Virus record (IMG/VR): IMGVR_UViG_2579778894_000011
DNA: 4,270 bases
Reading direction: 5' to 3' (one strand)
Origin: a virus
Taxonomy: Duplodnaviria > Heunggongvirae > Uroviricota > Caudoviricetes
Shown here: positions 26 to 1,001 of the stretch, one piece after another
How positions within the stretch are numbered: position 1 is the stretch's first letter
Layout: each line of letters opens with the position of its first letter
Notes under the pieces: model-generated
Told to the model about the DNA's origin: nothing
What the model saw: only the letters and a program-made list of their open reading frames with translations
Database searches by the model: none
Position numbers and translations under genes: made by a program

Positions 26-214
26 TCATTGCCAGCATCCTTTTTGTATCGGACGTAAACGGGCCAGCATTGAAAGAATGCATATTTTATTTAATAACTC
101 CCGTTCGTGTTTTCTCTTGTTAATGGCATCTTCAGTAAATACAGGGTTACTGATAGTGACACCAATTTCAAAACAACCTTCAGACGTATTAACGTTTGGT
201 AATAACGTTTCCAT
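26..214 (-). CDS. dicB: Cell-division inhibitor DicB (62 aa); the track ORF 26..319 is an over-extension
   Basis: Minus-strand ORF. The internal ATG at 214..212 gives a 62-aa product, METLLPNVNTSEGCFEIGVTISNPVFTEDAINKRKHERELLNKICILSMLARLRPIQKGCWQ, matching my recollection of E. coli DicB in length and sequence. A GAGGA Shine-Dalgarno lies about 7 nt upstream on the minus strand. It sits downstream of DicF as in the known dicB operon. The 35 extra N-terminal residues in the track ORF have no ribosome-binding site. Confidence 0.8.
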   Translation of the reverse strand: METLLPNVNTSEGCFEIGVTISNPVFTEDAINKRKHERELLNKICILSMLARLRPIQKGCWQ

Positions 215-380
215 TATCGCGTCCTCAACAATGAATTTTGTGATGCGATGCCTGGTGCCTCCAGGTGACGTTAACCAGTTAACAATTAACGCCGGATACA
301 GAGAATCCACCCATAACACTGTTTTTGGTTTTAACTGTTCCGCGTGCGCTCAGCCGCATTCACCACATCACAAAATTCAC

Positions 381-402
381 TTTAAAAACGGCGGCAGAGC
401 AG
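381..402 (-). terminator. Possible leaky intrinsic terminator at the DicF 3' end (GC-rich segment followed by a T-run on the minus strand)
   Basis: Minus-strand RNA reads ...CUGCUCUGCCGCCG followed by UUUUUAAA (plus 381..388 = tttaaaaa). GGCGG and CCGCC segments within DicF can pair. dicB lies downstream, so any termination must be partial. Confidence 0.35.
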
Positions 403-441
403 TCACGGAGTAAAACTGATACCGCCAAACGTCACCAGAAA
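389..441 (-). ncRNA. dicF: DicF small regulatory RNA (about 53 nt, antisense regulator of ftsZ and other mRNAs)
   Basis: The reverse complement of 389..441 is tttctggtgacgtttggcggtatcagttttactccgtgactgctctgccgccg, which matches my recollection of E. coli DicF almost base for base. Its position between ydfC and dicB on the dicA strand is the known arrangement. The exact ends are processing-defined and cannot be fixed from sequence alone. Confidence 0.8.
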
Positions 442-466
442 ATTGATAACAGAGGGCGTTGCAGCG

Positions 467-503
467 GGGTTGTCACTTAAGCGTATGGTCAACCTGACAA
501 CCC
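467..503 (-). other. Stem-loop (9-bp perfect stem GGGTTGTCA / TGACAACCC, 19-nt loop) in the untranslated region just upstream of DicF in the operon transcript
   Basis: Perfect inverted repeat read directly: 467..475 gggttgtca and 495..503 tgacaaccc. There is no ORF on the operon strand here. Candidate RNA-processing or stability element. Confidence 0.4.
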
Positions 504-782
504 GGTGTCCTCAACGGGGGAAGGAATAACCCCGCCATACTTACCGCCGCGCCATTTCGCGGATTGCCACAACCGGAAGCGCACGGTCGACGAAAATTTA
601 ACGACAGGCTATCTATGAACCAGCTACCTCGCCGTGCGCTTTCGCGTTATGGTCTGACTTTTCAGGGAAATATCCTTTCAGTAAACTGTCAATGCCGGAT
701 GCTCACCCGTGTCCGGCGCACGCACTCCACCTCACCCGTGGAGAACTCCTTAATTACTAACCTTAGCTTTGTTGATTAGCTA

Positions 783-1001
783 CTAACGCGGGTATGTAAT
801 CATTCTGGCAATGCTTAATGCCGCTGCTTTTTCCAGATTGGTGATATCCTGCTCCAGAGCGGACAGATTTTCAGCCTGCTTAGCTCTGGCTTCATTGGCC
901 CATTTCAGATCCTGCGCTGCATTAATTTTCTGGTGCATCCACTCATAAAGTTCATCATCGGTATAGTCTGGCGCGATGATGACGGGTTCTCGTTTCTGCA
1001 T
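783..1001 (-). CDS. ydfC: Small prophage protein YdfC-like (72 aa), function unknown
   Basis: 72-aa minus-strand ORF with ATG at 1001..999 and a GAGGAA Shine-Dalgarno 5 nt upstream (plus 1007..1012 ttcctc). The position (third gene after dicA) and length match YdfC of the Qin dicB operon; identity is from recollection, not a search. Confidence 0.75.
   Translation of the reverse strand: MQKREPVIIAPDYTDDELYEWMHQKINAAQDLKWANEARAKQAENLSALEQDITNLEKAAALSIARMITYPR

Follow-up and report, generated by a model that had tools for sequence, protein, structure and literature searches.

DicF was among the first bacterial small RNAs (sRNAs) ever described, and the long gap that precedes it in its operon raises the question of what this gap carries. 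Here, it was examined in a 4,270 nt stretch of DNA, the window, from the IMG/VR virus record IMGVR_UViG_2579778894_000011. This stretch covers the immunity and early-left genes of a lambdoid prophage of the Qin type from Escherichia coli. The gap lies between ydfC and DicF, both on the minus strand, and extends over positions 442–782 (341 nt). K-12 MG1655 has the same arrangement, with an unannotated 340 nt gap between ydfC and dicF. The interval is a real feature of the locus and does not include a credible gene. It is the untranslated leader of the DicF precursor in the dicBF transcript, as already published, and within it are a long helix and a 116 nt pseudoknotted domain (458–573, minus strand), here named the core. 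Both are evolutionarily maintained RNA structures of the minus strand and, with a linker and a terminator-sRNA cassette, make up a fixed module that is common to lambdoid prophages and phage P1.

A conserved pseudoknotted core

The core was compared in 159 instances, 71 of them distinct, from viral and metagenome contigs, annotated phages and genomes. It is closed by helix P1, in which GUUGUGG (573–567) pairs with CUGCAAC (464–458); these pairs (3–9/120–126) are 97.6% paired in the 71 sequences. Inside P1 is the essentially invariant P2 hairpin, CCGCG-AAAUGG-CGCGG (547–562, with 562–558 paired to 551–547), which is 98% paired, followed by a short GGU/ACC helix that joins 545–543 to 506–504. 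The latter encloses the variable hairpin P3 (515–534), which is CGGGG/CCCCG in the window (534–530 with 519–515). The last hairpin, P4, has a 9 bp stem, GGGUUGUCA/UGACAACCC (467–503, with 503–495 paired to 475–467), and an invariant 19 nt loop. Part of that loop, CCAUAC (488–483), forms a pseudoknot with GUAUGG (540–535) that is 99.3% paired and spans 483–540. Approximately 50 unpaired nucleotides of the core are invariant, including the P4 loop and CGGUAAGUAUGGC.

When the 71 distinct cores were aligned on a covariance model, 97.7% of pair cells were paired and 11 compensatory pairs were found, against 2.7 ± 1.3 in shuffles (0/500), though an alignment built on the model leans towards it. With the partners slid, only 32–60% of the cells were paired. 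A set of 28 representatives gave 97.3% paired, 11 both-sided pairs against 2.3 ± 1.3 in shuffles (0/500) and 31–59% when slid. RNAalifold independently recovered P1–P4, and the single-sequence minimum free energy (MFE) structure of the core is the comparative fold. P3 has been replaced by at least eight unrelated stems of different lengths at a fixed position (CUGGG/CCCAG, CAGGUG/CACCUG, CGAGG/CCUCG and CCGGU/ACCGG among them), and all three of its modelled pairs include a compensatory change. Four of the nine P4 pairs also have compensatory changes, for example UA to CG at 87–111. The 9 bp hairpin listed in the original prediction is this helix, P4, of a larger conserved domain. Pseudoknot pair 38–100 is UA in 66 sequences, CG in three (all of the phage P1 type) and UG in two, and the other five pairs are invariant or nearly so. 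P2, GGU/ACC and those five pseudoknot pairs vary too little to be informative for covariation. On the opposite strand the abundant G.U pairs would turn into C.A mismatches, and the structure was therefore assigned to the operon-strand RNA. A possible second pseudoknot, between the P3 loop and the GAGGA linker, was rejected, as its best complementarity averages only 4.25, compared with 3.58 in shuffles, and neither phage P1 nor locus L258 has it.

The covariance model matches the window once, at 447–575 (minus strand) with 147.8 bits, and the next best match has 7.4 bits. There is likewise one core match per locus in 71 loci. Among 5,426 complete E. coli genomes, 4,417 (approximately 80%) carry a total of 9,462 core copies, with a median of two and a maximum of eight per genome; 506 copies are on plasmids, and most copies are at least 95% identical. 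The taxonomic range beyond the E. coli, plasmid and phage collections was thinly sampled; in a scan of genome contigs with a pattern of 15 specified bases, the only real match was in Escherichia albertii, the rest being chance matches.

BLAST searches with the spacer, in which query position q corresponds to window position 783 − q, revealed three tiers of conservation. The distal part ends at window position 662, 670, 722, 740 or 762 in different prophages. The helix region, 576–662, is kept at 76–91% identity in many contexts. The third tier, approximately 465–573, is conserved far more widely, and extends to cdtI and Stx2c phages, Salmonella phages, a deposited Actinobacillus phage and P1/P7-type phages and plasmids. 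The boundary of this deepest tier (573 or 562) matches the 5′ end of the RNase III product described below. The core of the phage P1 type is only approximately 77% identical, yet it keeps all of the helices and, through a double change, the pseudoknot.

A contrary reading is that the core has no function as RNA. It might be a linker preserved by recent horizontal spread and used as a recombination joint between phage modules, or the remnant of a gene, and its mosaic flanks with sharp breakpoints, the near-identity of most copies and an ordinary thermodynamic z-score would all fit such an origin. We nevertheless consider this improbable given the excess of compensatory pairs, the strand-specific use of G.U pairs and the helices and pseudoknot preserved in the diverged phage P1-type copy. 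The stems that replace one another at P3 differ in length by numbers that are not multiples of three. Neither strand has an ORF (open reading frame) that spans the core, and Pfam gave no match.

Rfam 15 has no family that fits the core or the long helix: there was no such match at E ≤ 1 in the window, none of relevance at E ≤ 10 in 380–670, and none over the core in loci L005–L008. No description of it or of its invariant sequences was found in the literature searched, and no genome annotation beyond inconsistent antisense 'hypothetical proteins', which in other phages differ in size and frame. The closest is a label in the P1 genome record (NC_005856), where 68791–68892 is called a 'dicF-like region'; it takes in part of the P1 copy, from the 3′ half of its core into its terminator cassette, and records sequence similarity only. 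What P1 shares with Qin is the core and not DicF proper; the Rfam DicF model has no match in P1 at E ≤ 0.01, nor in the other distant core loci. Judged by sequence comparison, the distant loci share with Qin what lies upstream of DicF, not DicF itself. The core is a widespread, covariation-supported RNA domain that has apparently not been described, and it is a candidate new family for Rfam.

The Actinobacillus entry, PP818812.1 ('Actinobacillus phage vB_Apl-pPE4'; locus L008), has a core 84.8% identical to that of E. coli over the aligned 107 nt, in an early region with DicA, YdaT, Kil and exonuclease VIII. Behind its terminator there is a second copy of the helix P1 3′ strand together with the linker (CCCCGCCACAACAACCCAUGUUGAUUA). 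In view of the enterobacterial character of this locus, the host assignment is worth a check.

The long helix and the DicF precursor

The limits of the gap were correctly placed in the original prediction, with the ydfC ORF at 783–1001 (minus strand) and DicF located by Rfam. DicF (389–440, minus strand) scores 72.5 bits against the 52 nt RF00039 model, which has a gathering score of 48, and the annotated 53 nt form is 441–389; the spacer, 442–782, is outside the model. The spacer is 98–100% identical to many E. coli genomes, with K-12 approximately 98% identical over the interval. It had been called GC-rich, and is so only moderately (52.5% compared with 46.4% for the window). Three perfect hairpins are where they were said to be, at 467–475/495–503, 694–699/712–717 and 725–730/738–743. 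Only the first exceeds chance expectation, since a perfect 9 bp hairpin arises in 3.2% of dinucleotide shuffles; the overall number of hairpins with at least 6 bp is within expectation (three observed, 1.65 ± 1.3 in dinucleotide shuffles, P = 0.23). Folding of the whole spacer was equally unremarkable (z = −1.77).

The longest ATG-initiated ORF on the minus strand of the spacer is 21 aa, which agrees with the earlier limit of 21 codons, but GTG or TTG starts allow ORFs of 31 aa (489–584) and 29 aa (403–492). No Pfam match was obtained for these small minus-strand ORFs. Indels of 1–7 nt in homologues, together with the lack of Pfam matches and of conservation, exclude a coding explanation for the minus-strand interval, and no conserved open frame or family match that would mark a protein-coding gene or small ORF was found in the spacer. 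There is also no sigma-70-like promoter in 330–1050, in agreement with published primer extension, and an internal promoter for DicF was rejected on this basis.

DicF is processed from the polycistronic dicBp transcript (dicBF), of which the region examined here is described as untranslated (PMC10448788). RNase III makes the 5′ end of a 190 nt DicF species (PMC10448788; Faubladier 1990, as cited there) that is lost in a K-12 Δrnc strain (PMC10448788), and RNase E makes the 5′ end of the 53 nt DicF (PMC10448788; reviewed in PMC9438474). Primer extension gave no sign of an internal promoter for DicF, both the 190 nt and the 53 nt forms accumulate and are stable in stationary phase, and a terminated transcript of 1,146 nt and a read-through transcript of 1,608 nt both exist in K-12 (PMC10448788). 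The K-12 processing data (Ragunathan et al. 2023, PMC10448788; Faubladier et al. 1990, as cited there) concern the same locus, and the 190 and 53 nt species map onto the long helix and the linker. A length of 190 nt, measured from the 3′ end of DicF (389), puts the RNase III cut at 577/578 (minus strand, to within approximately 5 nt either way), in the middle of the 3′ arm of the 22 bp helix. The core forms the 5′ body of the published 190 nt RNA; in the K-12 work, the cleavages were mapped without structure, conservation or the core that lies between the two cuts (PMC10448788).

The suggestion that the spacer holds the RNase III or RNase E determinants that release DicF was therefore correct, and already in print (PMC10448788), while a second processed sRNA, also proposed, exists solely as the known 190 nt species. 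Control of read-through by a cis-regulatory element, the third suggestion, is a possibility taken up below. The RNase III substrate is not among the three hairpins of the original prediction. It is the long helix (567–652, minus strand), with a 5′ arm at 652–629, a 3′ arm at 590–567 and a variable apex at 628–591. In the MFE fold it is made up of 7 + 2 + 10 + 3 = 22 bp, and it provides the 20 bp or more of largely uninterrupted double-stranded RNA, approximately two turns, that characterizes an RNase III site. It includes the strongest inverted repeat in the spacer, 13 nt at 574–586/632–644, which the original prediction had missed, and is the sole part of the spacer that is thermodynamically outstanding (z = −3.51, 0/200 shuffles). 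Across 25 Qin-type homologues, 94% of helix pair cells are paired, compared with 26–36% when the partners are slid. The variation within this type is mostly one-sided wobble changes, with just one compensatory pair.

Nearly all core instances are preceded by a helix of 14–29 bp with a 3′ arm that ends in GUUGUG(G). These helices fall into three families, the Qin, cdtI and F1055/L258 types, that are unrelated by BLAST, and the helices of the cdtI and F1055 lineages have z-scores of −3.9 and −4.8. Phage P1 is different. It does not have the long helix, and its module begins approximately 36–45 nt after the C1-controlled Pban promoters, which suggests that the 5′ end is set there by initiation, not by RNase III.

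The sequence GUUGUGG (567–573, minus strand) is the 5′ strand of helix P1 and also lies at the base of the RNase III helix, in its 3′ arm. This sequence has two conserved and mutually exclusive partners, upstream CA(U/C)AAC in the long helix (CCAUAAC, 652–646, in the window) and downstream C(C/U)(A/G)CAAC in P1 (CUGCAAC, 464–458). The two duplexes have comparable energies, −6.8 kcal/mol with the upstream partner and −5.4 to −8.7 kcal/mol in P1.

In phage lambda, the leader of N includes nutL and then an RNase III-sensitive hairpin upstream of N. The DicF spacer resembles this leader in that a long helix cleaved by RNase III is found in the leader or inter-cistronic RNA of a PL-type operon. It differs in having no boxA-like site and no N gene, and in being followed by an sRNA/terminator cassette instead of a ribosome-binding site. 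As no boxA-like match was found in 442–782, a nut or boxA identity for the spacer was rejected; the core-bearing loci do not contain an N gene, and no formal search was made for a boxB hairpin.

A small hairpin at 654–665 (minus strand) immediately precedes the RNase III helix. It reads CCCUGA-AAAG-UCAGGG in most homologues and is degenerate in the window (CUGA/UCAG). Both-sided changes occur in it (CG/GC/UA at the pair in alignment columns 10–23 and GC/UA at 13–20), although these partly reflect an alternative sequence type.

Terminator cassettes and the role of the core

Downstream of the core is a single-stranded A/U-rich linker of 16 nt (442–457, minus strand) that ends at the RNase E-generated 5′ end of DicF (PMC10448788). 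Every full-length core instance is followed by a linker of 10–45 nt, which differs in length and sequence between cassette types, and then by a terminator-like hairpin and a U-run. In 69 of 77 cassettes the hairpin and U-run are found 33–74 nt after helix P1, and the others are truncated contigs or have longer hairpins. There are at least eight hairpin types, all of which start with UUUGGCGG, and DicF with its intrinsic terminator (389–441, minus strand) is one among them. Conversely, all 125 canonical DicF loci have the core upstream. DicF is thus the variable 3′ cassette of a fixed three-part module of RNase III helix, pseudoknotted core and terminator sRNA.

A natural variant, found in phiSTEC1589-Stx1c and 38 viral contigs, is precisely without the core. 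Its long helix ends in ...CCGGUUGUG and is joined to AAUAACAAC, the linker and a DicF-like cassette. This variant shows the core to be a discrete module, and one without which such a cassette can exist.

What the core does is the harder question. The reading that we favour, though we would put its chances at no better than even, is that it serves as a folding and processing scaffold for the DicF-family precursor. The leader has three parts, namely the 3′ untranslated region (UTR) of ydfC (782–656), the RNase III helix, and the core with the 16 nt linker before DicF. During transcription, GUUGUGG would pair first with its upstream partner as the base of the RNase III helix. Cleavage of the long helix by RNase III near 578 yields the stable 190 nt species, comprising the core, the linker and DicF, and with the upstream arm removed GUUGUGG would be free to pair with CUGCAAC and close helix P1. 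Closure of P1 would bring the new 5′-monophosphate end beside the single-stranded linker. RNase E, whose cut in the A/U-rich linker releases the 53 nt DicF, would thereby gain a defined entry site of favourable geometry next to a rigid domain. The same closure could explain the stability of the 190 nt intermediate.

Structure-guided processing by RNase E has precedents in MicL, CpxQ and SroC, which are sRNAs derived from 3′ UTRs or from within operons (PMC9438474). As with these, DicF shares the internal terminator of its operon and has an RNase E-generated 5′ end in a single-stranded A/U-rich stretch beside a stable structure. In contrast to them, its processing begins with an RNase III step, and the adjacent structure is not a set of simple stem-loops but a 116 nt pseudoknotted domain found across unrelated phage types.

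Several points weigh against a scaffold. Transcription from dicBp and the dependence of the 190 nt and 53 nt species on RNase III and RNase E, respectively, are from the literature, whereas the part given to the core is solely one that we infer. The position of the RNase III cut was derived from a published gel size. The support for helix P1 is mostly G.U-compatible transitions, and sequences from phage P1 use a different helix there, where the alignment is uncertain. The core alone is not thermodynamically exceptional (z = −0.84). While the MFE structures of whole units in six cassette types consist of the comparative fold and a local terminator, a different conformer, approximately 5–10 kcal/mol more stable, is predicted for the 190 nt RNA of the window. 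At the junction GUUGUG|AAUAACAAC of the core-less variant, the RNase III helix and the DicF-like cassette have been retained without the core. Finally, a rigid domain at an RNase E site needs neither some 50 invariant unpaired nucleotides nor a pseudoknot, which suggests a specific ligand or partner.

The core may represent a new class of phage cis-acting regulatory RNA, carried by N-less lambdoid prophages and P1, that acts either as a factor-independent antiterminator or as a sensor that binds a host component; we regard this as possible, though doubtful. It would then set passage past the DicF-family terminator into the toxic dicB/kil and the recombination and excision genes, and would couple sRNA production to read-through of the early operon. 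The antiterminator version taken by itself, a put-like but unrelated element in temperate phages without N, is unlikely. In it, the nascent core would modify RNA polymerase, which would then read through the DicF-type terminator into dicB/kil, ydfD, exo/bet and xis/int. This would suit the position of the core, which is always directly upstream of a strong intrinsic terminator in an early operon that needs distal gene expression, and in phage P1 directly follows the C1-controlled Pban promoters and precedes a terminator-like hairpin and the tRNA/ban operon. The coexistence of the 1,146 nt terminated and 1,608 nt read-through transcripts in K-12 (PMC10448788) would also be accounted for, and the many invariant unpaired bases would suit binding to a conserved host machine.

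The known RNAs of this kind, the put RNAs of HK022, are approximately 70 nt long with two stem-loops, are present as putL and putR downstream of both early promoters, and suppress termination without other factors via the zinc-binding domain of the RNA polymerase beta′ subunit (PMC9378689). Put and the core alike are structured RNAs encoded by phages that have no N, and both precede terminators within an early operon. However, the core has four helices and a pseudoknot in approximately 116 nt and no sequence or structural similarity to put. The core model scores at most 7.6 bits in the HK022 early region (24–32 kb), and we found no homology between the two. The core is also present in a single copy and in the leftward operon only, with no second copy in the approximately 2.4 kb of the rightward operon that the window includes, and in the Qin type it is approximately 850 nt from the promoter, after three ORFs.

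The distribution of N bears on the same proposal. An N-type protein is encoded in none of 171 core-bearing loci with at least 2.5 kb of upstream sequence but in 16 of 25 core-deleted loci, and no antiterminator Pfam family was found among the upstream ORF clusters. This correlation lends weak support, as it is confounded by lineage and at least two core-deleted loci (L409 and L410) have N-less DicA/YdfA contexts. In two further loci (L404 and L408), a 130 aa ORF with an arginine-rich N-terminus (MTRISVARPRSRRKTPRR...) is found approximately 1.56 kb upstream of the core-deletion junction. It occupies the place of N in related loci and was missed by the N profile, and may represent another N-type antiterminator family.

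A different form of control would be a riboswitch-like attenuator, with the core as the sensor that decides between termination and read-through at the DicF hairpin. The layout is that of a riboswitch, a conserved pseudoknotted domain closed by P1 and then a short linker and an intrinsic terminator, and the two mutually exclusive partners of GUUGUGG could serve as a switch. In the window, the MFE structure of the 190 nt RNA also pairs the core sequence CGGCGGUAAG with the 3′ arm of the terminator. This pairing between the core GGCGGUA and the terminator is absent from the other cassettes and has no covariation, and was rejected as a conserved feature. The comparative core fold is visible in the printed structures, and nothing conserved that could serve as an expression platform was found. 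In locus L004 the terminator has changed from GGCGG/CCGCC to GGUGG/CCACC with the core unchanged, and the terminator of phage P1 is not complementary to the core. All 35 cassette groups were scored as a local terminator in MFE folds, with canonical DicF units cut at the internal U-run of DicF, and no known riboswitch class in Rfam matches. An attenuator is accordingly the reading to which we give least credence.

The invariant GGCGGUA of the core (within 535–546) recurs unchanged as the 5′ terminator arm of DicF (420–426), an identity that could be due to common origin by duplication.

The 190 nt RNA or the core could instead be a functional non-coding RNA acting in trans, for example by sequestering a host or phage protein as a decoy or sponge, with the DicF-like hairpin mainly a terminator and 3′ stabilizer. 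In stationary phase the 190 nt species builds up and remains stable. The core is abundant in E. coli genomes and much better conserved than the sRNA cassette behind it, and its invariant loops, the 19 nt P4 loop and CGGUAAGUAUGGC, resemble a recognition surface. Nevertheless, no partner, Rfam family or paper describing the core was found, core-less variants are viable and the present data fit cis and trans function alike, and we consider this role no likelier than antitermination. If a trans function holds, the best-studied bacterium would contain a widespread non-coding RNA that has gone unannotated.

How DicF is produced, and how dicB is expressed past the DicF terminator, is still incompletely understood, and the core provides a defined object for mutation. 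Should it control processing, as under the scaffold reading, or read-through, it would add an unseen layer of control to the expression of prophage toxins and cell-division inhibitors, including in enterohaemorrhagic E. coli with up to eight copies.

The distal third and neighbouring genes

The remainder of the spacer, 656–782 (minus strand), is a lineage-specific, mosaic 3′ UTR of ydfC. It has an ordinary fold (z = −0.66) and is absent from the cdtI, F1055 and P1 lineages. Two of the hairpins in the original prediction are found here, and conservation does not favour them as it does P4. The 6 bp hairpin GCCGGA/UCCGGC (694–717, minus strand) is exact, and its stem is constant while its 12 nt loop diverges at four positions (CACGGGUGAGCA compared with CACGGAUAAGAA). 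The rare changes in the stem are compatible with G.U pairing or are singletons, and no compensatory pair was found; these observations lend weak support to a genuine, though local, hairpin. The other, CUCCAC/GUGGAG (725–743, minus strand), is also exact with 6 bp, but is at chance level and was seen only in near-identical copies with a few single disruptive changes.

The loops of these two hairpins carry an identical 10 nt direct repeat, at 702–711 and 731–740, with the copies 29 nt apart. It reads CTCACCCGTG on the plus strand and CACGGGUGAG as RNA, and the first copy becomes CACGGAUAAG in diverged homologues.

On the plus strand, an antisense ORF of 71 aa (564–779) is spurious, as had been suspected. 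It has no Pfam match and is not conserved, with 50 aa or more intact in approximately a quarter of instances and recombination breakpoints inside it. PGAP sometimes annotates a 54 aa version.

The window also includes dicA (1483–1890) upstream of ydfC, with ydfA and ydfB between them in the window gene list, and dicB (26–214) downstream of DicF, all on the minus strand. On the plus strand are dicC and replication genes. The dicF-dicB spacer, which is the dicB 5′ leader (182–391, minus strand), scores 34.3 bits with the Rfam model of STnc100, below the gathering score of 47. Weak STnc100 matches recur downstream of the module at 2357–2498 in L004, 2842–2961 in L005 and 1766–1950 in L008. This recurrence suggests that the dicB leader is a second conserved structured leader, poorly covered by the Rfam model.

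Two loci have been modified downstream of DicF. In E. coli WP5-S18-ESBL-07 (L004, 2087–2288), C4 antisense RNA, IsrK and a Rha-family regulator have been inserted between DicF and dicB as an immI-type antirepressor module, and a dicB fragment has been left behind. In another E. coli genome (L003, 1073–2235), an IS3 element has split dicB, while the core and DicF module upstream is intact.

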